DNA of 15,507 nt from a virus (Duplodnaviria > Heunggongvirae > Uroviricota > Caudoviricetes). Location of the stretch: positions 1-15,507 of the IMG/VR virus record IMGVR_UViG_2778261457_000008. One strand, written 5' to 3'. A model generated the notes under the pieces. That model was not told the DNA's origin. It made no database searches and saw only the letters and a program-made list of their open reading frames with translations. A program made the position numbers and the translations under genes. Positions 1 through 15,507 of the stretch are shown here, in pieces. Positions within the stretch are counted from its first letter, which is position 1; the number at the start of each line of letters is the position of its first letter.

Positions 1-1248
1 ATGGCACTGAATATTCCATTCAGAAATGCGTACTATCGTTTTGCATCCAGTTACTCATTTCTCTTTTTTATTTCCTGGTCGCTGTGGTGGTCGTTATACG
101 CTATTTGGCTGAAAGGACATCTAGGGTTGACAGGGACGGAATTAGGTACACTTTATTCGGTCAACCAGTTTACCAGCATTCTATTTATGATGTTCTACGG
201 CATCGTTCAGGATAAACTCGGTCTGAAGAAACCGCTCATCTGGTGTATGAGTTTCATCCTGGTCTTGACCGGACCGTTTATGATTTACGTTTATGAACCG
301 TTACTGCAAAGCAATTTTTCTGTAGGTCTAATTCTGGGGGCGCTATTTTTTGGCTTGGGGTATCTGGCGGGATGCGGTTTGCTTGATAGCTTCACCGAAA
401 AAATGGCGCGAAATTTTCATTTCGAATATGGAACAGCGCGCGCCTGGGGATCTTTTGGCTATGCTATTGGCGCGTTCTTTGCCGGCATATTTTTTAGTAT
501 CAGTCCCCATATCAACTTCTGGTTGGTCTCGCTATTTGGCGCTGTATTTATGATGATCAACATGCGTTTTAAAGATAAGGATCACCAGTGCGTAGCGGCA
601 GATGCGGGAGGGGTAAAAAAAGAGGATTTTATCGCAGTTTTCAAGGATCGAAACTTCTGGGTTTTCGTCATATTTATTGTGGGGACGTGGTCTTTCTATA
701 ACATTTTTGATCAACAACTTTTTCCTGTCTTTTATGCAGGTTTATTCGAATCACACGATGTAGGAACGCGCCTGTATGGTTATCTCAACTCATTCCAGGT
801 GGTACTCGAAGCGCTGTGCATGGCGATTATTCCTTTCTTTGTGAATCGGGTAGGGCCAAAAAATGCATTACTTATCGGAGTTGTGATTATGGCGTTGCGT
901 ATCCTTTCCTGCGCGCTGTTCGTTAACCCCTGGATTATTTCATTAGTGAAGTTGTTACATGCCATTGAGGTTCCACTTTGTGTCATATCCGTCTTCAAAT
1001 ACAGCGTGGCAAACTTTGATAAGCGCCTGTCGTCGACGATCTTTCTGATTGGTTTTCAAATTGCCAGTTCGCTTGGGATTGTGCTGCTTTCAACGCCGAC
1101 TGGGATACTCTTTGACCACGCAGGCTACCAGACAGTTTTCTTCGCAATTTCGGGTATTGTCTGCCTGATGTTGCTATTTGGCATTTTCTTCTTGAGTAAA
1201 AAACGCGAGCAAATAGTTATGGAAACGCCTGTACCTTCAGCAATATAG
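1..1248 (+). CDS. cscB: Sucrose:H+ symporter, LacY-family oligosaccharide/H+ symporter (MFS); host flank
   Basis: 415-aa ORF with about 12 hydrophobic segments; N-terminus MALNIPFRNAYYRF and the GIVQDKLGLKK loop match my recollection of CscB/LacY; csc loci are known to lie beside argW. Confidence 0.8.
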   Translation: MALNIPFRNAYYRFASSYSFLFFISWSLWWSLYAIWLKGHLGLTGTELGTLYSVNQFTSILFMMFYGIVQDKLGLKKPLIWCMSFILVLTGPFMIYVYEPLLQSNFSVGLILGALFFGLGYLAGCGLLDSFTEKMARNFHFEYGTARAWGSFGYAIGAFFAGIFFSISPHINFWLVSLFGAVFMMINMRFKDKDHQCVAADAGGVKKEDFIAVFKDRNFWVFVIFIVGTWSFYNIFDQQLFPVFYAGLFESHDVGTRLYGYLNSFQVVLEALCMAIIPFFVNRVGPKNALLIGVVIMALRILSCALFVNPWIISLVKLLHAIEVPLCVISVFKYSVANFDKRLSSTIFLIGFQIASSLGIVLLSTPTGILFDHAGYQTVFFAISGIVCLMLLFGIFFLSKKREQIVMETPVPSAI

Positions 1249-1777: not shown

Positions 1778-1978
1778 TTACCCATTGGCGCGGCTTAAGA
1801 GCTTATTTTTGAATTCACAATGGTCACGATATAACCATCTTGCTCGCCCGTGGATAACTTTGGCTTTAGGCAGGTCGCCGGACTTAATCCGGTCATAGAT
1901 GAAGGTTTTACCGAAGCCAGTATCGGCCATGATGAATTTCAAATCAACCAGTGAATCAGGCTGTAGTTCGTGTTGCAT
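1778..1978 (-). CDS. torI: Excisionase / recombination directionality factor, AlpA-Xis winged-helix family (TorI-like)
   Basis: 66-aa product MQHELQPDSLVDLKFIMADTGFGKTFIYDRIKSGDLPKAKVIHGRARW…; GGAG 9 nt upstream of this ATG; the track's upstream ATG at 1993 has no SD; position next to att without int matches KplE1-type layout. Confidence 0.7.
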   Translation of the reverse strand: MQHELQPDSLVDLKFIMADTGFGKTFIYDRIKSGDLPKAKVIHGRARWLYRDHCEFKNKLLSRANG

Positions 1979-1995
1979 GAGTGCTATCTCCAAAT

Positions 1996-3362: not shown

Positions 3363-3898
3363 TGGTTGCCTCCTTTGCGAAGCTGGGCGGCGAATTTCTG
3401 TGCCTCTTTCTGGATGAATAGCTTTTCGCTGAAGTTATGGTACTGACCGAACATCTCCACGCCCTGCGCCCGAACTTCAGCCATGAAGGCGTCGGTGGCT
3501 GGGTGCTCTGTCTGGCTATGCATTGCCCATTCAGATAAGTACTCGAAGCAACGGCGAAACTCCTGCCAATCACTGCACATGTTTAGATTTCCGCCTTCAC
3601 ACTCGAACTGGTAATTCTCTAAACGGTCTGCAAACGCTATGCCATTCTCGATGGCACCAAGTGGAATATCAGACTTCATCCCCGCATTCTCTGCCGTAAG
3701 CGCCGCGCACTTGGCCTCAAGGTTATCAATCGTGATTCCAGCAGAACGACACTCCCGCAACGCCGTTTCCAGTTTTGATTCAAGTTCACCGAACTTACGG
3801 ACAAGATATTCAGCGTTTGTTTCGTTAACCTTTAAATCTCGTGGGATGCATTTACCTTTCAGAAAACCATCCATCTCAATTAGTGACATTTGTTTCAT
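3359..3898 (-). CDS. Hypothetical early-left protein (about 179 aa)
   Basis: Long open frame; I place the start at ATG 3898 (GGAG upstream) rather than the track's GTG at 3916, which has no SD; no recognisable domain. Confidence 0.5.
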
Positions 3899-4055
3899 TT
3901 CTTCCCACTCCGCCACATCGCATTCAGATATTTGTTGTCATTAACAGAACCGAAACTCTTTCTCTTAAGCAATTCCTCTCTCGATGGCATTGGCTTTACG
4001 CGTTGGCGAATAATCATTTCTGCCGGAAGAATGCCGGGGTTGTATGCAAGTTCTC

Positions 4056-4346
4056 TCATGATTTACTCTCCACGACCTGGTCAATAGCCATGCTAAGTGA
4101 CATACCTAAAGTTTCGATATGCTGCTGAATATCCTGTAGCGTCTGCGCCTGAGATAACAGGATTTCACGGTTACATAACTCTTTAACCAGATGCTCAAAC
4201 TTGCTGTAATAACCGATACGGCTTAGTGTTTCTTTCCCTGCATTCTCACCTTCTTTGATAATTCCTCTTTCACTAAGAATCAGGTCGTGTTTGGTTCCGG
4301 TAATAACGTATTTGCCGAGGTCGATGTTTAGCTTCATTGTTTTCAT
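4056..4346 (-). CDS. Hypothetical protein (96 aa)
   Basis: ATG at 4346 with GAGGA 7 nt upstream, overlapping the upstream gene's stop; the track's longer N-terminal extension lacks an SD. Confidence 0.45.
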
Positions 4347-4356
4347 TGTTAATTCC

Positions 4357-4650
4357 TCAGTCATTACTGATAGCGCCATAACGTGAGCGGTAATTACGCA
4401 GGCGCGGGTCAATTTCAGGGAAGTGGGTATATGTGGCTTTGCGGAATGGTCGGATTGATGTCTGGTAAATTCGCTCGCGTTCTTCTTTCTCTGCAAGCCA
4501 TATACAGTGGCGAAATTCCTTTTCCTCTTTCGTTTCCTGCGGTAGCGACATTATCAGGTCGTAGTTTTTTCTGAATTTATCCAGCACCTCCGATACGGAA
4601 TTGCCGGAACAGCGGCGCGCGTCGTCCGCACCATACAGAGGCGCTGGCAT
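4357..4650 (-). CDS. Hypothetical protein (97 aa)
   Basis: ATG at 4650 with AGGAG 6 nt upstream; tight packing with neighbours. Confidence 0.55.
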   Translation of the reverse strand: MPAPLYGADDARRCSGNSVSEVLDKFRKNYDLIMSLPQETKEEKEFRHCIWLAEKEERERIYQTSIRPFRKATYTHFPEIDPRLRNYRSRYGAISND

Positions 4651-4663
4651 GATTTTCTCCTGA

Positions 4664-5143
4664 TTAAATTGCGTGAATAGCGTGACGAGGGAAGGGGAGA
4701 GTTACTGGTTCCTCGTCTGGGTAGATAGGTTTGTTATGTTTGTGCCACTCGACATGACATGACTTGCAGAGCCACATCACATCGGTTGGTTTGCTGTAGT
4801 CGCAGTGGTGCGCCTGTGGTTTACATTCTGATCCGCAGCACTCACATTGTGGTGGTCGGATTAGCTTACCGTCGCGCAAAAAATTACCCACAATGATGTG
4901 GGCTTTTCTTTTCCATGGGTTGCTCTGAATGAACCGCTTTTTGGCTGCGTTACACCGTTCTCTTCCGCGTTCCGATGATTGATATTCTCTCCTTGCTGAT
5001 ACTCGATGTGGCAATCCAGCGCGTTCTTTGTCGTATTCAGCCAGGCAAGCCCGGCAAGCGGCAGTTAATCCATCTCTGGATGCTCTTCTGATTTGAAAGT
5101 CCCTTTCTTCCTTCTGTTGATGGCATCTTGAGCAGATTTTCAT
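4664..5143 (-). CDS. HNH endonuclease with N-terminal Cys-rich region
   Basis: 159 aa; C-terminal motif …CECCGSECKPQAHHCDYSKPTDVMWLCKSCHVEWH typical of the HNH fold; AGGAG 6 nt upstream of the ATG. Confidence 0.65.
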   Translation of the reverse strand: MKICSRCHQQKEERDFQIRRASRDGLTAACRACLAEYDKERAGLPHRVSARREYQSSERGRERCNAAKKRFIQSNPWKRKAHIIVGNFLRDGKLIRPPQCECCGSECKPQAHHCDYSKPTDVMWLCKSCHVEWHKHNKPIYPDEEPVTLPFPRHAIHAI

Positions 5144-5152
5144 ATTCAGCTC

Positions 5153-5626
5153 CTAGAACGGAATATCCGAATCGTCGAAGTTCATAGGTGGTTCGCTGTG
5201 ATTTCCCTGCTGCTGAGGTTGCTGTCTTTGTTGCTGACCATTATTTCGCTGAGGTGAAGACTGTTCATTGCCTCCTTGCTTGCCACCAAGCATTTGCATG
5301 GTTCCACCAACGCCCACGATGACTTCGGTAGTGAACCTATCCTGTCCGCTTTGATCCTGCCATTTTCTTGTCCGTAATTTGCCTTCAAGATAAACCTCAG
5401 AGCCTTTTCGCAGATATTCGCTGGCAATTTCTGCCAGTTTCCCGCTCATTACCACACGGTGCCACTCCGTCTGCTCCTTTTGCTCTCCAGTTTGCTTATC
5501 ACGCCATTGTTCTGACGTAGCAACTGTAAGGTTTGCAAATGCCGTTCCTGATGGTGAATATCTGATTTCTGGATCATGCCCAAGGCGACCAATAATGATC
5601 ACCTTATTTACGCCTCTACTTCCCAT
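5153..5626 (-). CDS. ssb: Single-stranded DNA-binding protein
   Basis: 157 aa; OB-fold N-terminus, Gly/Gln-rich linker and acidic tail ending DDSDIPF. Confidence 0.85.
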
Positions 5627-6334
5627 TTATGCCGCCTGTTTTAGTTCGTTAACTCTGATGTTCATTACCTGAACGCATTTAGCCTGCGCCTCCTCGTTGC
5701 CAGCCATTAATTGCCAGTCACGCTGATAACGCTCGATGAGTTTTTTCTTGTCAGTTTCTGTTGACGCATAATCGCTGAAGTCTTTCAGGATTTGTTCGCA
5801 GTCAACCGATGGAGATTTCTGGTTGGTATTTTCTGGTGATGGTTTGTTATCTGATGCTGGGATTGCCCATCCCGGCAGCGATGGAGGGAGCCAGTAAAAT
5901 CCTGTTCCATCCTTCAGTTTTGCCCTGTGCCACCCCTGCTTTTTATCGAGAGATGTTTGTGCGAAACCTTCCTCAAGGTTATACAGATACCGACCGATTC
6001 CCCACTGAACGGCAGCACGCTTCATTGCACCGGAACGACCACCTTTTACGGCTTCTACCTGCGTGTTTTCAGCGGCATCCCATTTGGTTACCCATTCGGA
6101 ATCAATCTTGATTGATATGCCGCATTCAACTCCGCCGTTGTTGGGAATATCGCGGTATTCATTGCGCCATCCTGCTTTGCCGCAAACATCGTCCAGGCGT
6201 TTCATGATTGCCCGGTTCGTGACATAAGCCAGCACCATAGCCCACACCTTGCCATCGCGTGTTTTACCGCTTTGCTGTATTCGCCATTCGATATCTTCAG
6301 GGCTGAATGGCTCATCGAATTTATTCAAATCCAT
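5627..6334 (-). CDS. Rad52/Sak-like single-strand annealing protein (recombinase)
   Basis: 235 aa; pattern …GGRSGAMKRAAVQWGIGRYLY… resembles Rad52-fold annealing proteins; sits in the bet/erf slot beside ssb; GAGGTG 4 nt upstream of ATG. Confidence 0.55.
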   Translation of the reverse strand: MDLNKFDEPFSPEDIEWRIQQSGKTRDGKVWAMVLAYVTNRAIMKRLDDVCGKAGWRNEYRDIPNNGGVECGISIKIDSEWVTKWDAAENTQVEAVKGGRSGAMKRAAVQWGIGRYLYNLEEGFAQTSLDKKQGWHRAKLKDGTGFYWLPPSLPGWAIPASDNKPSPENTNQKSPSVDCEQILKDFSDYASTETDKKKLIERYQRDWQLMAGNEEAQAKCVQVMNIRVNELKQAA

Positions 6335-6342
6335 AATTCACC

Positions 6343-6531
6343 TCAGAATGGTAATTCGGATGGGGAGGAAAGAAATTCGCGCTCATTCATGCGCTCTCTT
6401 TGTGCTTGCCATAAACAAAGTTGTTTCTTTGATTTATCTCCCGCTTTACGCCAGTAACGAGCCTCAGCAATGTGATATTCTCTTTTTAATCGACTTAACT
6501 CTGGAGTTTTCGCCAGCTCTACCGGAATCAT
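6343..6531 (-). CDS. Hypothetical small basic protein (62 aa)
   Basis: ATG at 6531 with GGAGG 5 nt upstream; ATGA overlap with the kil stop. Confidence 0.45.
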   Translation of the reverse strand: MIPVELAKTPELSRLKREYHIAEARYWRKAGDKSKKQLCLWQAQRERMNEREFLSSPSELPF

Positions 6532-6641
6532 TTAGACCTCCATTTTCTGTAGGCTTCGACGGCCTCACGAAACATCTTTTCATCGCCAATAAAAGTGGCG
6601 ATAGTGAATTTAGTCTGAATAGCCATAAGTGTTTTATCCAT
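6528..6641 (-). CDS. kil: Kil-like host-killing / cell-division inhibitor (37 aa)
   Basis: MDKTLMAIQTKFTIATFIGDEKMFREAVEAYRKWRSK matches my recollection of lambda Kil; its ATG overlaps the cIII stop (ATGGATAA). Confidence 0.5.
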   Translation of the reverse strand: MDKTLMAIQTKFTIATFIGDEKMFREAVEAYRKWRSK

Positions 6642-6780
6642 TTTTTGGAACTCCTGGCTGATTAAGTACGTCGATGAGTCGTTTCCATCCGTCACGTAAT
6701 TTACGGGTGATTCGTTCAAGTAAAGATTCATTTAGTTGGAAGGCACCCATGCGAGCGCCTCCCGCGATTGCGTAAATCAT
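6634..6780 (-). CDS. cIII: CIII (FtsH/HflB inhibitor stabilising CII)
   Basis: 48-aa product MIYAIAGGARMGAFQLNESLLERITRKLRDGWKRLIDVLNQPGVPKNG; central helix matches recalled lambda CIII; AAGGAA 6 nt upstream; not in the ORF track, which instead fuses frames into 6528..6731. Confidence 0.6.
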   Translation of the reverse strand: MIYAIAGGARMGAFQLNESLLERITRKLRDGWKRLIDVLNQPGVPKNG

Positions 6781-6804: not shown

Positions 6805-7773
6805 TTAGTAGGTTATTTTTGTTGCGAATACTTCGCCTTTTACGATGGCTGTTATGATATTTTTAGCAACATCTTCTGATGCGCCAACCTTGATAAGGTC
6901 AGCAAGTATTTTGTTATTTACTTCTTTTCGGTGAGCTTTATCCTTTGCTCTACACTCTTCTTCTTCCTTGATTCTTTTTTCTTCTGCTATTCTGGCTTGC
7001 TCTTTTGCTTCAGCCTCGCGCCGGATTCGTTCAGCCTCCTCCTGTGCTTTTCGGCGTTCTGCTTCAATTGCCGCATGCTTTTCTCTTTCAGCTCGTTCTG
7101 CTGCCTCTTTTGCTTCGCGCTGTGCTCGTTGCTCGGCTTCAATGCGTTCACGCTCTGCACGTTCCGCTGCGGCCTTAGCTTCTGCTTCTCGCCTTGCTGC
7201 TGCTTCAATTTCGGCTTTTGCCTTTGCTTCGGCTTCAGCTCTGGCTTTCTCTTCAGCTTCTCTTTTTAAGCGTTCTTCATGCTCTCGCTTTTCCTGCTCC
7301 GCTTTGAGTCTTGCCTCTTCTCTTTGGCGGTCAAATTCGCGATCCATCAAAATCGCTATTTCATGGTCAGACTCAATTTGCTTTGCGAGAGCTTCAGCTG
7401 CTGCCCTAGCTTCTTCTTCGGCTTTAATCCGCGCCTGTTCTTCCTCATAATCAGTAAGAGGCTGGCGTGCCTTGGCTTTCAGCTCATCAAGGCGATCACG
7501 CACTGTCTTGCGGTTGGCATCAATTAGCTTTGGAATTTCCTTCAGTTCAGCAACAAGGTCTTTGCCAAGACCATCGAGATATGTTTTCGTCTGCGCAACT
7601 TTATACGCCAGAGAAGCGATCTCCTTTCTGCCCTTTGCCGTTGTGATATCAGGCACAAAGGACATAACTTCACGTTCAACCTTTTGAAGGATTTCTTCAA
7701 TCTGGCCGGCAGACTGAAATACAGTCATTGCATTTGCTTTTTCAATAACAACTAAATCTGTTACTTCACTCAT
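6805..7773 (-). CDS. Hypothetical phage protein with long Glu/Ala/Arg/Lys-rich coiled-coil (322 aa)
   Basis: ATG at 7773 with GGAGG 4 nt upstream; the track's start at 7827 lies inside the upstream terminator hairpin; about 150 residues of EAKAEAE/RREAE repeats. Confidence 0.6.
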   Translation of the reverse strand: MSEVTDLVVIEKANAMTVFQSAGQIEEILQKVEREVMSFVPDITTAKGRKEIASLAYKVAQTKTYLDGLGKDLVAELKEIPKLIDANRKTVRDRLDELKAKARQPLTDYEEEQARIKAEEEARAAAEALAKQIESDHEIAILMDREFDRQREEARLKAEQEKREHEERLKREAEEKARAEAEAKAKAEIEAAARREAEAKAAAERAERERIEAEQRAQREAKEAAERAEREKHAAIEAERRKAQEEAERIRREAEAKEQARIAEEKRIKEEEECRAKDKAHRKEVNNKILADLIKVGASEDVAKNIITAIVKGEVFATKITY

Positions 7774-7785
7774 ATATCCTCCGTC

Positions 7786-7812
7786 AAAAAAATTGCCCTC
7801 ACACTGGAGGGC
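7786..7812 (-). terminator. tL1-like intrinsic terminator on minus strand (stem GCCCTC/GAGGGC, loop CAGTGT, then AATTTTTTT)
   Basis: Read from sequence; lies just upstream of the coiled-coil gene's SD. Confidence 0.5.
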
Positions 7813-7962
7813 AAAGAAGATTTCCAATAATCAGAACAAGTCGGCTCCTGTTTAGTTACGAGCGACATTGCTCAGTGTATTCACTCGTTGGAATGAATAT
7901 ACAGTGCAGTGTTTATTAGTATGCCTGTCTTTTAACCACATCAGGCTCGGTGGTTCTCGTGT

Positions 7963-9265: not shown

Positions 9266-9634
9266 TTAGTCAGCGAAGGTTAAGACGAGAATTACCTTAA
9301 TGATGTCTGCTACAACAGACACGGCCATAGATAAACCAAAGACGATCCAAGCCACAGTGATGTCTTCACTACCATCGTATAGAGTTCCGTAATCACTGGT
9401 GTAAGGCGTAAATGTCGCGCCTTGATACAATAGGTATAAGCTTGATCCATAGAGGATAAATGCAGATATCCCTTGTATTGCTATGATCACAAGAATCATG
9501 AAACGAGCTGATCTATGCGCCCAAGCCTGGCTTATTTTTTCTGATAGAGATTTCGCAATAAAAGCATGCGCTAAGCCGTAAATTGTCGAGATTGCCAACA
9601 TCCCAAAAAAGCTTGCTATAGCGGTTCCAACCAT
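9266..9634 (-). CDS. Small integral membrane protein (about 122 aa, about 4 TM) directly downstream of cI, in the rex slot
   Basis: ATG at 9634 with AAGGGG 5 nt upstream, 17 nt after the cI stop; the track's start at 9655 is a TTG overlapping the cI stop; very hydrophobic; no recognisable family. Confidence 0.6.
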   Translation of the reverse strand: MVGTAIASFFGMLAISTIYGLAHAFIAKSLSEKISQAWAHRSARFMILVIIAIQGISAFILYGSSLYLLYQGATFTPYTSDYGTLYDGSEDITVAWIVFGLSMAVSVVADIIKVILVLTFAD

Positions 9635-9651
9635 AAGCGCCCCTTGCGTGA

Positions 9652-10368
9652 TCAAACCAGCCTTAGTTTTGTCTCAATTGCAACGCCTATAATCTTGCAG
9701 TTTCCATTGATTGGCACGAGAGGCCATGCAGGATTAAGTCCCTTGAGGTATTTATTTCCGCCGTCGATTATCAGCTTCTTGAATGTTGCTTCGTTAGAGT
9801 CAGAAAGTTTTGCTATGACCAAGCTGCCGTTGATCGCCTCCCTTCCGGTATCGAAAAGAACGAATGTTCCCTCTGGAATGCTTAACCCAACCGGTGCCGT
9901 CATTGAATCACCTTCCACTTTAAGCCAAAACGCATTACCTTGAATATGCGCGTCAGACTCAAGCCAAACATCTATGTCTTTAATGGTGTATGGTTCGCAT
10001 GCTTCACACCACGAGCCAGCCTGGATACTGCTTAACACCGGATACCTCTTTCCTGCTCTGTATTCCCCTGCATACCTTACGTTGGCATCGCTCTTAAGGC
10101 TTTCTGCCTGTTCTGCAACCTTGGCAGCAATTGACTGGCTAAAATCAGCAATTGAGACTTGCAACAATCGTGCAAAACCAGATGCAACCTCAACGTTTAG
10201 CGCGTTTCTGCCATTAAGATAATGCCCTACCGCTCCTTGGGTGATACCAAGTTCATCAGCGATTGAGTATTGGGTTATTCCCAATTCTTTCTTTTTTGAC
10301 TCATACAAAGCCTTAAGACGCTTAGCGTCTTCGAGCTGTTCTGTCGTCAGTGATTTTTTATTTTCCAT
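9652..10368 (-). CDS. cI: CI-type prophage repressor (HTH + S24 LexA-like autocleavage domain)
   Basis: 238 aa; N-terminus LTTEQLEDAKRLKALYESKKKELGITQ and C-terminal FWLKVEGDSMTAP…FKKL closely parallel lambda CI; divergent from cro across operators. Confidence 0.9.
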   Translation of the reverse strand: MENKKSLTTEQLEDAKRLKALYESKKKELGITQYSIADELGITQGAVGHYLNGRNALNVEVASGFARLLQVSIADFSQSIAAKVAEQAESLKSDANVRYAGEYRAGKRYPVLSSIQAGSWCEACEPYTIKDIDVWLESDAHIQGNAFWLKVEGDSMTAPVGLSIPEGTFVLFDTGREAINGSLVIAKLSDSNEATFKKLIIDGGNKYLKGLNPAWPLVPINGNCKIIGVAIETKLRLV

Positions 10369-11090: not shown

Positions 11091-11237
11091 ATGACAAAAC
11101 AACTCAGTCCTTACCAGGACAAAATTCACAAACACATACTACGTGATCGCTTCCTGTCCAGCTTCAAGCAGCCTGGTCGATTCCGGGCTGAGTTGGAAAA
11201 AGTGAAGCTGATGCAGAAGGAGAAAGGTCATGAGTAA
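11091..11237 (+). CDS. Candidate small basic protein (48 aa) between cII and O
   Basis: ATG with AGGAG 5 nt upstream; no internal stops; overlaps the O start by 8 nt; not in the ORF track (<60 aa); [48 protein letters not shown]. Confidence 0.35.
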
Positions 11238-12090
11238 TCTTGCAACCGTAACACATTTAAGGCCTTCACAACGGCCTGTGGAGCGTCGTGTGGCAGAAGT
11301 TGAAGATGGTTATACCCGTCTTGCAAATGCCCTGTATGAAGAGCTTATCGGCGCTGATTTAACGAAAAATCAGAGCAAGGTTGCCCACGCCATATGCCGT
11401 AAAACATACGGCTACGGTAAAAAGATGGATCGCATCTCTGATAGTCAGTTAGCTCAAATTACCAGGCTGCCAAGACAGAAGGTAAACAAGGCCAAGAATG
11501 AGCTTATCGCGATGAAGGTTATCCTTCGCGAAGGCCAGCAAATCGGGCCTAACAAGAACATCGAGGAATGGCAAATCGAAGGGTGTCACTACTCTGGTGA
11601 TAATGTCACTGCATTGGTGACAAAAAGTGTCACCAAAACGGTGACAGCGCTGTCACCAAAACAGGGACACACAAAAGAAACTATTACAAAAGAAAAAAGA
11701 AATAATAAAAACACTATGTCCGAAAGTGTTCGGACGGAGTGTGAAAAATCACATGACCGTCACGAAGAAACCGACAAGGCATTCGAGGAAATATTCTGGT
11801 GTGCAGGCATGCGGAAAGCCGGGAAGAAAAACGCAGCTTCGGCATTCAGAACACAGTTCAGGGAATGGCGTAAAACTACCAGGGGTACGGCAAGCGAGTT
11901 TGCCACGATGCTGGCAGAAGACATCGCATGCAGGAATGGTAAGCAGTTCGGATTCGACAGGTTGTTACCATCGAGCTACCTGAACGGTCAACGCTGGAAC
12001 GACGAGAAGCCAGAAACTATTCAACCACAATCCAAACCATCATCCGCAATCACCGTATCGAAAACTGGCTACGTGTTTTTCGACAGGTGA
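11230..12090 (+). CDS. O: Replication initiator, lambda O-like N-terminal DNA-binding domain with divergent C-terminal domain
   Basis: 286 aa; N-terminal region (…[14 protein letters not shown]…[40 protein letters not shown]…) parallels lambda O; AAGGAG 7 nt upstream; origin iterons lie inside the gene. Confidence 0.8.
11584..11715. repeat. Replication origin: iterons followed by an AT-rich tract, inside the O gene
   Basis: Palindromic units GGTGACA-N5-TGTCACC (11616-11634) and GGTGACA-N4-TGTCACC (11640-11657), a partial unit at 11596-11610, each followed by AAAAC; AT-rich run 11658-11715. Confidence 0.6.
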
Positions 12091-12093
12091 ACC

Positions 12094-12201
12094 ATGAAAT
12101 CAAAAATCAAATCGCTACTGGTCGCTGGTTATAACCACGGCTGGTTAAGTATTTCGTTTGTAGATTTCTGGTTTAAAAATCTCAATCTGAGGGAATCATG
12201 A
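12094..12201 (+). CDS. Possible 35-aa hydrophobic micro-ORF coupled to the helicase gene
   Basis: ATG 4 nt after the O stop with AGGTG 4 nt upstream; its TGA overlaps the helicase ATG (ATGA); could be chance. Confidence 0.25.
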   Translation: MKSKIKSLLVAGYNHGWLSISFVDFWFKNLNLRES

Positions 12202-14078
12202 GGCCAAGTGAACTTAGCGACCTGCTTTGGGCGCAGGTTGACAGGGTGGCTCCGCACCTGTTGCCAAACGGCAAGAAAGAGGGGCATGAGTGGGTTGCCG
12301 GTAACGTCAACGGTGACAAGGGAAACAGCCTTAAGGTCAACCTTAGCGGCAAGAAAAAATGGGCTGATTTCGCTGAGGGAGACGGCGGTGACATGCTTGA
12401 TTTGTGGATGGCATGTCGTGGAATTAACCTGCATCAGGCTATGCAGGAAGCGAAAGCCTTTCTCGGAATCAAGGATGACGATCACCATTTCGATGCCAAA
12501 CGTGAGAAGAAATTCTCCAGACCTGACCGCAAGAAAATCGCCCGCTACGTTACCAGAACAGAATCCCATCTTGAGTACCTGCAATCGCGTGGCATATCGC
12601 CAGAAGTCGTAAAGCGCTACGAGGTTGTCAGCGGCAAGGTGTGGAATGGAGAACGAGAACTTGATGCACTGGTGCTTCCGTACAAACGCGATGGTGAGTT
12701 GTTGCAGGTCAAGCGAATCAGCACTGAGCGCCCGGACGGGAAGAAAGTCATTATGGCAGAAGGTGATTGTGAACCTTGTCTGTTCGGATGGCAGGCTCTG
12801 GACGCTGGCGTGAGGGCGGTTGTACTTTGCGAAGGCGAAATTGATTGTATGAGCTATGCGCAATACGGCATCTCGGCGTTATCCGTGCCGTTTGGTGGCG
12901 GGAAAGGCGCTAAGCAACAGTGGATTGAGTTTGAGTATCACAATCTCGACAGGTTTGAGGAAATATTCATCTCGATGGACGTTGATGATGTTGGTCGTGA
13001 AGCCGCAATGGAAATCGCAAGCCGACTCGGTGAACATCGTTGCCGTCTTGTTACTCTGCCGTACAAAGACATCAACGAATGCCTGATGAACGGTGTTACC
13101 GAGGATGAAATCTGGCAGTACATCGGCACGGCATCCTACTTCGATCCTGAAGAACTCTACAGTGCGCGAGAGTTTTACCAGGACACTATCAACGCTTTCT
13201 ACGGCAAGCAGCAATATCTGTTTAATCCACCGTGGGAATCTCTGGCAGATAAATTCCAGTTCCGTGAGGCAGAGTTGACGCTGGTCAATGGTGTGAACGG
13301 TCACGGAAAAACGGAGGTTGTCGGGCATATGGCACTTGAGGCAATGCGTCAGGGTGTGAAGACGTGCATCGCGTCACTTGAGCTGAAGCCAGGCATTCTC
13401 CTTAAGCGACTTACCCGTCAGGCGACGTGCTGCAAGATGCCGCCAGTGCTGGAAATTGACTCTGCATTTAAATTTTATGACGAAAGACTTTGGGTGTTTG
13501 GCCTGACCGGAACGGCGAAAGCCGACAGGCTGATCGAAATATTCGACTACGCTCGCCGCCGATACGGGATCCAGTTATTCATCATCGACAGCCTGATGAA
13601 ATGTGGCATAGGCGACGATGACTATAACGGGCAGAAGGCGTTTGTTGACTCGATTTGCGACTTCAAAAACAAAACAAACTCCCACGTCATTCTCGTTACT
13701 CACTCGCGAAAAGGAGACAGCGAAGAAAAACCAACCGGGAAAATGGACGTAAAAGGCTCTGGAGCGATAACAGACCTGACAGACAACCTTTTCATCATCT
13801 GGCGTAACAAGGCTCGCGAGAGAGCGTTACAGAGAGTTCAGAGTGGTGAAAAGATGTCAGAGAAGGACGAACAGTTACTGGCATCTCCGGCATCTGTTTT
13901 GATGCTTGAAAAACAACGTAACGGCGAAGGTTGGGAAGGTGGTGTCCCGTTGTTCCTTGACGAGCAATCGCACCAGTTCCTGCAACTTGAATCAGGATCG
14001 CCATATAGCTACATCGCCAATATGCCGAAATCGGAATATGACGAGGCGTGGCGACAGGAAAACGTGACGGAGTATTAA
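12198..14078 (+). CDS. Bifunctional DNA primase/helicase (Toprim primase domain + DnaB/RecA-like P-loop helicase)
   Basis: 626 aa; Toprim-like VLCEGEIDCMS and ISMDVDDVG; Walker A GVNGHGKTE, Walker B FIIDSLMK, then ILVTHSRKG; occupies the lambda P slot. Confidence 0.8.
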   Translation: MRPSELSDLLWAQVDRVAPHLLPNGKKEGHEWVAGNVNGDKGNSLKVNLSGKKKWADFAEGDGGDMLDLWMACRGINLHQAMQEAKAFLGIKDDDHHFDAKREKKFSRPDRKKIARYVTRTESHLEYLQSRGISPEVVKRYEVVSGKVWNGERELDALVLPYKRDGELLQVKRISTERPDGKKVIMAEGDCEPCLFGWQALDAGVRAVVLCEGEIDCMSYAQYGISALSVPFGGGKGAKQQWIEFEYHNLDRFEEIFISMDVDDVGREAAMEIASRLGEHRCRLVTLPYKDINECLMNGVTEDEIWQYIGTASYFDPEELYSAREFYQDTINAFYGKQQYLFNPPWESLADKFQFREAELTLVNGVNGHGKTEVVGHMALEAMRQGVKTCIASLELKPGILLKRLTRQATCCKMPPVLEIDSAFKFYDERLWVFGLTGTAKADRLIEIFDYARRRYGIQLFIIDSLMKCGIGDDDYNGQKAFVDSICDFKNKTNSHVILVTHSRKGDSEEKPTGKMDVKGSGAITDLTDNLFIIWRNKARERALQRVQSGEKMSEKDEQLLASPASVLMLEKQRNGEGWEGGVPLFLDEQSHQFLQLESGSPYSYIANMPKSEYDEAWRQENVTEY

Positions 14079-14163: not shown

Positions 14164-14376
14164 ATGGACACCGTTAACGGAATGTGTTCAGACGCACCGC
14201 GTGCCAAAAAATGTAAATGCGGAAAATCACCGACAATATTCGACATGGAGAACGGGTGCCAAATCTACTGCGCTAACCACGCCGCTGTGGCGGCCGCGAA
14301 TTATCGCAGTGCGGTAACGGAGTGGAATAACCTGAAATCTGTTAGAGAGGGAAGTCATGAAAAAACTAACCTTTGA
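14164..14376 (+). CDS. Small Cys-rich (zinc-ribbon-like) nin-region protein
   Basis: 70 aa with CKCG…GCQIYC cysteine pairs; AGGGGG 6 nt upstream; its 3' end overlaps the ninB start by 20 nt; possibly Lar-like, not confirmed. Confidence 0.5.
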   Translation: MDTVNGMCSDAPRAKKCKCGKSPTIFDMENGCQIYCANHAAVAAANYRSAVTEWNNLKSVREGSHEKTNL

Positions 14377-14797
14377 AATTCGATCTCCAGTACATCAGCA
14401 AAACGCTATTCACGCAGTACAGCAAATCCTTCCAGACCCAACAAAACCAATCGTAGTAACCATTCAGGAGCGCAACCGCAGCTTAGACCAAAATCGGAAG
14501 CTTTGGGCTTGCCTTGGTGACGTTTCGCGTCAGGTTGAATGGCATGGTCGCTGGCTGGATGCAGAAAGCTGGAAGTGTGTGTTTACCGCAGCATTAAAGC
14601 AGCAGGACGTTGTTCCTAACCTTGCCGGGAATGGCTTTGTGGTAATAGGCCAGTCAACCAGCAGGATGCGTGTAGGCGAATTTGCGGAGCTATTAGAGCT
14701 TATACAGGCATTCGGTACAGAGCGTGGCGTTAAGTGGTCAGACGAAGCGAGACTGGCTCTTGAGTGGAAAGCGAGATGGGGAGATCGGGCTGCATGA
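14357..14797 (+). CDS. ninB: NinB (Orf) recombination mediator
   Basis: 146 aa; essentially the lambda NinB sequence as I recall it ([72 protein letters not shown]…). Confidence 0.85.
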
Positions 14798-15507
14798 TAA
14801 ATGTCGTTAGTTTCTCCGGTGGCAGGACGTCAGCATATTTGCTCTGGCTAATGGAGCAAAAGCGACAGGCAGGTGAAGACGTGCATTACGTTTTCATGGA
14901 TACAGGGGCAGAGCACCCTAAAACATATGAGTTCATCCGAAATATCGTCAGTAACTGGAAAATAGACTTACATTGCCTTCGTGTAATACCTAATCCAGAA
15001 ATGGGGAAGGCCAGTAGTTATGAAGAGATAGGTGTCAATGATATTGGTCCAGATCTTATACCGTGGAAAAGGATGTTGAATAAATACGGACATCCATATA
15101 TCGGCGGTGCGTTCTGTACCGACAGAATGAAGTCTGTTCCATTCACCAAATATTGTCAGGAAAAGTTTGGGAAAGGAAATTTCATCACATGGCTTGGCAT
15201 TCGCACAGATGAACCAAACAGGCTTAAAAGGGCTAATGGTTTTCGGTACCTGGCTGATATAAGCGATTTTGAAAAACAGGATGTGCTTGATTGGTGGAGT
15301 GAGCAGAAGTTTGATCTTGGCATACAGGAGCATCTTGGTAATTGTGTTTTCTGCATAAAAAAAAGTATGCAAAAGGTGGCGCTGGCAGCCATGGATGAGC
15401 CAGAACTTGCAGATGCATTTATCAACATCCTTGATACAGAAATAAAAACAGGAAAGGTAGACTGGCCCCCTGAATCTCCAGACAACCAATATCACTTAAA
15501 TAAGTGA
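14794..15507 (+). CDS. PP-loop ATP pyrophosphatase / PAPS-reductase-like protein (NinC-position)
   Basis: ATG at 14794 overlaps the ninB stop (ATGA); product begins [15 protein letters not shown], a P-loop-like SGGxxS signature; 237 aa; stop is the last codon of the window. Confidence 0.65.

Follow-up and report, generated by a model that had tools for sequence, protein, structure and literature searches.

An IS2-interrupted copy of the lambdoid phage gene ninC, and a possible DNA-directed role for the intact protein

We find that the open reading frame at positions 14794 to 15507 of the window (the whole stretch of DNA analysed here, 15,507 nucleotides long) is the ninC gene of a P22/lambda-like Escherichia coli prophage, interrupted by the insertion sequence IS2 after codon 221. 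Taking the evidence as a whole, the explanation that we favour, and to which we would give a probability of about 0.85, is that of a ninC broken by IS2, this particular copy of which is probably dead; that the intact product would be a DNA-acting PP-loop enzyme we hold with much less confidence. The gene is one already known, having carried its name since the lambda sequence; the sequence-only reading of this DNA had left it unnamed, but it is ninC, the Nin290 of lambda, where it is non-essential (PMC10695390). The features referred to in the text are as follows.

14357 to 14797, plus strand: ninB (146 aa; recombination mediator NinB/Orf), identified by Pfam PF05772 NinB with an E-value of 7e-54
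14780 to 14797, plus strand: translation-initiation region of ninC, with GGAG at 14780-14783 and ATG at 14794-14796, read from the sequence
14794 to 15507, plus strand: chimeric ninC'::IS2 ORF as called, 237 aa
14794 to 15457, plus strand: 5' portion native to ninC, made up of codons 1-221 and one further base and containing the PP-loop core, delimited by homology to intact NinC
14809 to 14832, plus strand: PP-loop motif S6-F-S-G-G-R-T-S13 (SGGxxS; the canonical form is SGGxDS, here with T in place of D), from the sequence
15115 to 15354, plus strand: segment with the four family-invariant cysteines, from the invariant columns of an alignment of 29 homologs
15458 to 15507, plus strand: left terminus of IS2 (IS3 family), its first 50 nt, in the same orientation as ninC, a 100% match to IS2

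Read directly from the window, the frame runs on the plus strand from the ATG at 14794 to a TGA at 15505-15507, a total of 237 codons. A machine-made list of ORFs opens it further upstream, at a GTG at 14764; we place the start at 14794 because all homologs begin with MINVV. The TGA of ninB (14795-14797) and the ATG of ninC share the tetranucleotide ATGA, with the GGAG lying 10 nt upstream of the ATG, and the same 4-nt overlap between the two genes is found in lambda, in E. coli 042 and in phage SE16. The overlap of the start with the ninB stop, as well as the SGGxxS signature and the PAPS-reductase-like character of the encoded protein, had been picked out from the sequence alone, and all are borne out by our analysis.

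Nucleotide searches identify the region as the ninB-ninC segment of lambdoid and P22-like phages, with 97% nucleotide identity to lambda in the ninB region. The gene itself goes under several names: NinC in Salmonella phages SE16, SF11 and SE1, 'Nin 290' or NinC in lambda (lambdap64), and 'phosphoadenosine phosphosulfate reductase family protein' in the annotation of E. coli prophages. Over residues 1-221, or 93% of the query, the product is 99% identical to the best database protein, an intact 281-aa NinC of E. coli (P0001), and this protein shares 57% identity with lambda NinC along its whole length, in an alignment of 286 aa. It also matches PHROG 33262, 'PAPS reductase', with an E-value of 2e-93, and a second PHROG family of the same name at 1e-63.

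The window copy thus shares with lambda NinC, and with its orthologs in E. coli and Salmonella P22-like phages, homology across the PP-loop core, the cysteine motifs, a position in the nin operon, downstream of the replication genes and immediately behind ninB, and the ATGA overlap; it differs from them in being cut after codon 221, such that the last 60 residues are missing and 16 IS2-encoded residues follow K221. Every homology alignment to ninC, whether of nucleotides or of protein, ends at 15457, and in a three-way alignment the native part is 95% identical and then diverges completely after residue 221. The intact protein has 281 aa in E. coli 042 and in SE16 and 290 aa in lambda, most of the full-length homologs listed fall between 268 and 290 aa, and their conserved sequence continues at the point where the window ORF departs from it. 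As the C-terminal module of the family (an MYR motif containing R227, helices at 232-253 and a GSCSESCE tail) has been replaced by residues encoded by IS2, we regard the locus as a disrupted, rather than an intact, member of the NinC family.

The identity of the foreign sequence is equally plain. Nucleotides 15458-15507 match perfectly at 20,338 places in E. coli genomes, on both chromosomes and plasmids, and this IS2 end occurs in 4,687 of the 5,426 complete genomes of the species, at a median of three places per genome. In SK1144 the match forms the outer end of a ~1.3-kb element whose terminal inverted repeats are imperfect, and it stops 41 nt upstream of an IS3-family transposase gene with a programmed frameshift; in K-12 MG1655, the mobile element annotated as 'insertion sequence:IS2A' opens with the same sequence, TAGACTGGCCCCCTGAATC... 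In a three-way alignment with IS2A, the window and its source contig track intact ninC as far as ...ACAGGAAAGG and from there follow IS2A base for base; intact ninC goes on past the junction as AACCGGTTATGTATCG..., diverging at exactly that base, and the switch coincides with the opening base of the terminal repeat of IS2 (TAGACTGG...). The match to the reference IS2 end is exact over the 50 nt in the window and over a further 27 nt on the source contig, as in other IS2 insertions in E. coli and its lambdoid prophages; by comparison with a complete IS2, the left end alone is visible here, with the transposase genes (insC/insD), the right end and the target duplication lying beyond the end of the contig.

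It follows from this match that the last 16 residues (codons 222-237) and the TGA stop codon of the chimeric ORF are transposon sequence, supplied by IS2. Translation from the ninC ATG would run 50 nt into the IS2 left end and terminate at the TGA found there, to give a 237-aa chimera without the last 60 native residues. A short PHROG match confined to residues 217-237 fits with other IS2-truncated phage ORFs having already been catalogued. The exact ninC-IS2 junction, searched for as a 41-mer, has no match in GTDB representative genomes, and the junction is likewise absent from the complete E. coli genomes and phage records that we searched.

With respect to the intact protein, the family carries an N-terminal SGGxDS-type PP-loop following the first strand of a Rossmann-like fold, as expected of a PP-loop ATP pyrophosphatase, and the motif is at least 90% conserved across the alignment of 29 homologs. 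Profile searches, for which PAPS_reduct, QueC and DndC had been put forward on the strength of the sequence, came out in favour of the first alone: the window ORF passes the Pfam PAPS_reduct threshold (PF01507, E-value 1.1e-8, 35.7 bits vs a cutoff of 22.5), and scores far below the respective family thresholds for QueC, the 7-cyano-7-deazaguanine synthase (PF06508, 14.8 vs 22), and for DndC (TIGR03183, 12.6 vs 290.4 bits). The generic Pfam PP-loop family is also below threshold, at 13.7 vs 27 bits. Among the defence-system profiles of PADLOC, the best matches are all to DNA-phosphorothioation proteins: SspD (E-value 2.4e-14), BrxP (6e-8) and DndC (5e-4). With these NinC shares the PP-loop N-terminal half and a richness in cysteine, and the SspD profile, at 277 positions, is of similar length; the match is, however, limited to approximately residues 4-144 of NinC, and that to SspD (51.7 bits) spans only positions 3-122 of the profile, such that at the level of family HMM scores NinC does not belong to DndC, SspD or BrxP. 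We also saw no gene for their usual partners (a cysteine desulfurase, an NTPase of the DndD/SspC/BrxC kind, or DndE/SspB) in the window, and none for DndA/D/E, SspB/C or BrxC is annotated in the nin regions of lambda, E. coli 042 or SE16.

The four invariant cysteines of the family are C108 (15115-15117, within FCTDRMK), C121 (15154-15156) and the C184-x-x-C187 pair (15343-15354, within GNCVFC). Together with what appears to be a mobile cysteine tail, they suggest a metal or Fe-S site served by a CysH-like swinging nucleophile, and the SGG-type loop suggests binding of ATP rather than of PAPS. We therefore picture intact NinC, as a working model, as an ATP-pyrophosphatase-type PP-loop enzyme and not as a PAPS reductase of sulfate assimilation, with a putative Cys4 site for a metal or Fe-S cluster (C108, C121, C184 and C187) and a mobile cysteine tail that might work much as the catalytic tail does in CysH or APS reductase.

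A clue as to the substrate may come from the company that the gene keeps. We surveyed the context of 80 viral loci with NinC homologs of 53-100% identity, and found NinB to be the upstream gene in only 14; elsewhere its place is taken by a Dam methylase, NinG or others, typically with the same 4-nt overlap, and in two loci the start of ninC coincides with the end of an O-like replication gene. The coupling of ninB to ninC is therefore generic nin-operon packing and says nothing about recombination, and so the suggestion that NinB might serve as a pointer to function does not hold up. By contrast with this variable neighbour, NinC is fused in frame to a C-terminal N6-adenine methyltransferase in 23 of the 80 loci, 17 of the PF05869 Dam type and six of the PF02086 D12 type, as assigned by closest BLAST reference with nine of the fusions scanned directly against Pfam. 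In a further 11 loci an unfused Dam gene abuts ninC (nine ending on the ninC start, and two starting just after ninC), and two more have a Dam gene within 1.3 kb; the remaining 44, lambda-type loci included, have no methyltransferase within 3 kb. The order ninB-dam-ninC is frequent in E. coli prophages.

An all-against-all HMM search of 1.84 billion representatives returned 3,059 clusters for the family (317 at E <= 1e-30), and amongst its long members both orders of domain occur: Dam-NinC in P0121 and P0124, NinC-Dam in P0122, P0129 and P0150, and NinC-D12 in P0125. One ORF of 1,099 aa has NinC sitting between a C5-cytosine methylase and a D12 methylase, and the GSCxESCE tail is retained as a linker in fusions. 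Independent fusions to three families of methylase, and in both orders, argue that NinC would act on, or together with, DNA; the 44 loci with no methyltransferase nearby speak against it.

There is also evidence of a kind from anti-defence. Two genes of Vibrio phage 44E38.1, p0018 and p0019, conferred on a related phage, once transferred to it together, the ability to infect a Dnd+ host (10.1101/2021.05.05.442762). The first of these, p0018 of this Vibrio crassostreae phage, is a NinC-Dam fusion annotated as 'Dam methyltransferase with PAPS reductase domain': the N-terminal 278 residues of the protein (Piel et al., preprint 2021, published 2022) are 62% identical to intact E. coli NinC, GSCSESCE tail included, and its NinC domain has 67% identity to the native portion of the window ORF. 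Like ninC, it sits in the early region of its phage, near a ninG/rap gene; unlike the window ORF, it is intact and carries a C-terminal PF05869 Dam domain. A 2026 paper in NAR credits a phage PAPS reductase with promoting evasion of Dnd, and cites the published Vibrio work for it (PMC13551039). The curated anti-Dnd genes listed for the same phage by AntiDefenseFinder, however, are not p0018 but p0020 and p0021, which we verified to be the two genes just upstream of p0019; as the sources disagree, the attribution of Dnd escape to p0018 is ambiguous.

Drawing these strands together, we suggest that intact NinC may be an ATP-pyrophosphatase-type PP-loop enzyme with a Cys4 site, acting on phage DNA alongside DNA methyltransferases in modification or counter-restriction, a proposal that we hold at a little short of even odds. 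A more specific version, which we advance with slightly greater reserve, is that NinC might work with, or be targeted by, methyltransferase domains to place, for example, a phosphorothioate-type mark at GATC that evades Dnd/Ssp-type restriction. Such phosphorothioate-based (Dnd/Ssp-type) systems would be the most plausible target, and one that would explain why ninC is dispensable in lambda grown on K-12. All four known phosphorothioation systems need an NTPase beside the PAPS-reductase protein (PMC12914056). Since no such NTPase partner is annotated next to ninC in the nin regions of lambda, E. coli 042 or SE16, a phosphorothioate mark made by NinC would need components from the host, or would have to be made in a different way. 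Nor, to our knowledge, has any unusual modification of lambda DNA been described, which also tells against the proposal. The full-text literature on the function of NinC yielded only essentiality data and statements that it is 'uncharacterised' (PMC10695390, PMC11437467), the second of these being a 2024 paper that counts lambda amongst the mobile elements with uncharacterised homologs of PAPS reductase.

The alternative that fares best against this DNA-directed proposal is that intact NinC acts on something other than DNA (thiolation or amination of tRNA or another RNA, or chemistry on a small molecule), with the fused methylases being no more than co-selected accessory neighbours. We consider this unlikely, if far from negligible, given that the fusions recur with three families of DNA methylase and in both orders, with NinC on one occasion lodged between two methylase domains; that the best matches in the defence library are DNA-phosphorothioation proteins; and that escape from Dnd has been reported upon transfer of a segment bearing p0018. 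A nucleic-acid-directed or anti-defence role, as raised in the sequence-only reading, is thus a reasonable one for the family, on the basis of the SspD, BrxP and DndC matches, the methylase fusions and p0018; it does not extend to the copy in the window, which is probably dead.

That last judgement rests upon what the insertion has taken away. Judged by conservation in an alignment of 29 diverse full-length homologs, it removes 60 conserved residues, and with them the invariant R227 (of the MYR motif) and I236, as well as the near-invariant F239, E246, R250, C266 and E267, the last two belonging to the GSC(S/T)ESCE motif that forms the near-invariant GSCSESCE cysteine tail. In an AlphaFold (AF2) model of an intact ortholog (mean pLDDT 86, pTM 0.85), residues 221-250 are predicted with pLDDT values of 84-94 and include two confident helices spanning residues 232-253; the helices of residues 222-253 are confidently modelled as packing into the domain, with the Cys motif lying within a disordered tail (residues 260-281). 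Because R227, the two modelled helices and the GSCSESCE tail are all lost, we infer that this copy is probably inactive and the truncated 237-aa protein non-functional.

It might be countered that the truncated protein still works, as its PP-loop core (residues 1-221) holds the catalytic machinery: the chimera retains the PP-loop, a DTG motif, FCTDRMK, the CxxC and all four invariant cysteines, and the GSCSESCE tail is missing from a few natural homologs (P0075, P0091 and P0098). Against this stand the loss here of R227, I236 and the five near-invariant residues, the removal of a segment modelled as helices packed into the domain and the addition of sixteen foreign residues, and we think residual function improbable.

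Less probable by some way is that the junction arose in assembly, as a chimeric contig end, in which case the true genome would hold an uninterrupted ninC. The exact 237-aa product is recorded on a single contig, NNVV01000003.1, of assembly GCA_002485875.1 (256,931 bp), which calls it as a gene and has it finish 27 nt short of the contig end; those 27 nt continue IS2 exactly, so that the contig closes on 77 nt of IS2. No more of IS2 than these 77 nt is seen, and the contig holds neither the junction on the right, nor a 5-bp target duplication, nor the 3' fragment of ninC. Their number, 77, we take to be the residue of a k=77 graph assembler breaking at a repeat, that is, a k-mer overlap. A join only 77 nt from the end of a draft contig, within a multicopy repeat, and unmatched among complete E. 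coli genomes and GTDB representatives, might well arouse suspicion; against this, the switch occurs exactly at the first base of the IS2 terminal repeat, as real transposition gives and a random mis-join rarely would, and a graph assembler extends only through k-mers that are present in the reads. New insertions of IS2 are, moreover, commonplace, given the frequency of the element in E. coli genomes, and we regard an artefact as very improbable.

The same circumstance accounts for the manner in which the window closes. It does end at the stop codon of the ORF, as had been remarked of it, and downstream genes are not visible because the draft contig ends 27 nt further on, inside IS2; the 'missing partner genes' are a limit of assembly and not a matter of biology. 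In lambda, E. coli 042 and SE16, relatives in which ninC is intact, the genes that come next are ninE, ninF, rusA or ninG, ninH and Q.

A further possibility is that NinC is a genuine PAPS reductase of sulfate assimilation, and thus an auxiliary metabolic gene of the CysH type. It has in its favour the PF01507 match, the RefSeq name 'phosphoadenosine phosphosulfate reductase' and the fact that CysH provides the closest solved structures by Foldseek. The likeness is a distant one: when the family profile is compared with solved structures, only PAPS/APS reductases match, and only over approximately residues 3-70 (E-value 5.5e-7), whilst Foldseek gives weak matches, with TM-scores of ~0.4, to CysH, LarE, APS reductase and TtuA. 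As the profile and Foldseek matches are partial or weak, we describe NinC as a divergent protein of the PP-loop/PAPS-reductase fold. Scores against the NCBIfam equivalogs fall far below cutoff (PRK02090, 19.3 vs 154; TIGR02057, 13.4 vs 254; TIGR02055, 17.1 vs 235), and the ECGLH motif is absent from the window ORF and from all 29 homologs. Compared with the assimilatory PAPS/APS reductases (CysH; PDB 6vpu, 1sur and 2goy), to which it is 15-20% identical, NinC also has an additional helical module at residues 190-253, and in an HMM alignment its SGGRTS, a loop of the ATP-binding type, aligns with the SSFG loop of CysH, having SGG where CysH has SFG. The gene, furthermore, sits in a phage nin operon and fuses to DNA methylases. 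On the equivalog scores and motifs we reject a true CysH function, and consider it very remote indeed.

Finally, that the 237-aa ORF is an intact and naturally short PP-loop enzyme, which is how the sequence-only reading had implicitly taken it, and for which a clean frame with start, Shine-Dalgarno sequence and stop, called as a gene in the source assembly, might speak, is refuted by the IS2 junction: its last 50 nt are an IS2 terminus, native homology stops after codon 221 in a family that is mostly longer and conserved beyond that point, and just one contig is recorded as encoding this exact protein.

As regards the setting of the gene, we considered and rejected the idea that the prophage is defective for want of an integrase in the window. 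At the left edge a TorI-type excisionase adjoins the host csc locus, a junction found in 191 complete genomes, and this fits with the arrangement in KplE1/HK620-type prophages, where the integrase presumably lies at the far end of the prophage. A tRNA scan of the window, in search of an attachment site, found none. A 70-aa Cys-rich ORF upstream of ninB was compared with the Lar-type restriction-alleviation protein that occupies that position in a relative, and showed no similarity to it.

Taken by itself, then, the locus is ordinary and of little import: an accessory gene already known from phages, broken by a transposon and lying where a draft contig stops. The 237-aa length, the C-terminus and the stop codon are artefacts of IS2 insertion, and we would caution that the locus should be annotated as a ninC pseudogene; the copy could be of use solely as a natural null allele. 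For the family, the methylase fusions and the likeness to sulfur-inserting phosphorothioation proteins point to DNA modification or anti-restriction and not to sulfur metabolism, the category to which such 'cysH' genes are routinely assigned in studies of viromes. The pattern of methyltransferase fusion is the one lead that we think worth passing on, and it is testable as a guide to what lambda NinC does; if a DNA-directed role were true, ninC, an orphan gene of lambda for 40 years, would gain a function.

The gene at the left end of the window encodes a sugar permease of the LacY family (PF01306, E 1e-193), for which the annotation in relatives is cscB or oligosaccharide MFS transporter; it is a host gene and not a phage gene, and the left boundary of the prophage therefore falls between about 1249 and 1778. 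As many as 191 complete E. coli genomes share this host-prophage junction, adjoining the csc sucrose locus and dsdA. The edge of the prophage holds a small ORF, the counterpart of a gene that relatives carry annotated as torI (a TorI-type excisionase), and no integrase lies within the window, an arrangement that fits the layout of KplE1/HK620-type prophages, in which int sits at the opposite end.

Features of the window, by position
1-1248, plus strand: LacY-family sugar permease gene
1778-1993, minus strand: small ORF, torI counterpart
4357-5143, minus strand: segment with Abc2, then a 159-aa protein
6805-7827, minus strand: ORF of 340 aa (322 aa as called), flanked by cIII and sieB
9266-9655, minus strand: ORF of 129 aa (122 aa as called), flanked by cI and N
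11230-12090: O-like initiator gene
12198-14078, plus strand: 626-aa Toprim + DnaB-like primase-helicase fusion
14164-14376, plus strand: 70-aa cysteine-rich ORF

Counter-defence functions are abundant in the early-left operon. Abc2, the P22 anti-RecBCD protein 2 (PF11043, E 6e-64), is followed by a protein that matches a PHROG endonuclease family, and whose N-terminal 70 residues additionally match a Lar-like restriction-alleviation PHROG. Two sizeable ORFs of the early region belong to no Pfam family. For the one between cIII and sieB, the PHROG matches are solely to families of unknown function; the other separates cI from N, where a ‘moron’ or an exclusion gene is typically located.

Within the replication module, the O-like initiator is paired with the primase-helicase fusion, whereas the closest ninC-bearing relatives have a lambda P-type loader or plain DnaB helicase in place of the latter. 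The cysteine-rich ORF (CKCGKS...CQIYCANH), the 3' end of which shares 20 nt with the start of ninB, gives a hit to PHROG 6308, a family of unknown function, at E 4e-54 and none to Pfam. In one relative a Lar-family restriction-alleviation gene takes its place, but we set aside a Lar-type identity for the window's ORF, as it has no detectable similarity to that protein.

A related prophage in E. coli 90-9280, which occupies the same chromosomal site, provides a further case of IS-mediated decay of the nin region (L087:34224-36025): an IS100 (IS21-family) element sits just upstream of it, and ninE is present in fragmentary form, as is a nuclease gene.

Turning to the NinC family itself, many representatives of 328-383 aa (P0123, P0127, P0128, P0136-P0138 and P0141-P0147 among them) align to the profile in two pieces, with the break near profile position 145-160, which implies a putative mid-domain insertion of roughly 50-100 residues. 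In the relatives' locus L054, a single 1,099-aa ORF (3402-6701) carries two DNA methyltransferase domains flanking NinC, in the order C5-cytosine DNA methylase (PF00145), NinC, D12 N6-adenine methylase (PF02086). Directly 3' of the NinC-methylase fusion gene, and overlapping its end, three loci have a gene for a DUF968 (HNH-like) protein 345-397 aa long, which may be a conserved partner.

DUF968 (HNH-like) genes following NinC-methylase fusions
L052:6563-7600
L054:6698-7759
L083:2482-3675

Finally, sources disagree as to the anti-Dnd determinant of Vibrio phage 44E38.1, whose genes p0020-p0018 span L088:1564-4434. A 2021 preprint (10.1101/2021.05.05.442762) points to the PAPS-Dam protein p0018, as does a 2026 NAR paper (PMC13551039), whereas the anti-Dnd genes curated in AntiDefenseFinder are p0020 (280 aa, a length confirmed by translation) and p0021 (51 aa). 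This conflicting attribution may affect virome counts of ‘adnd_p0020’ or ‘cysH’ matches.
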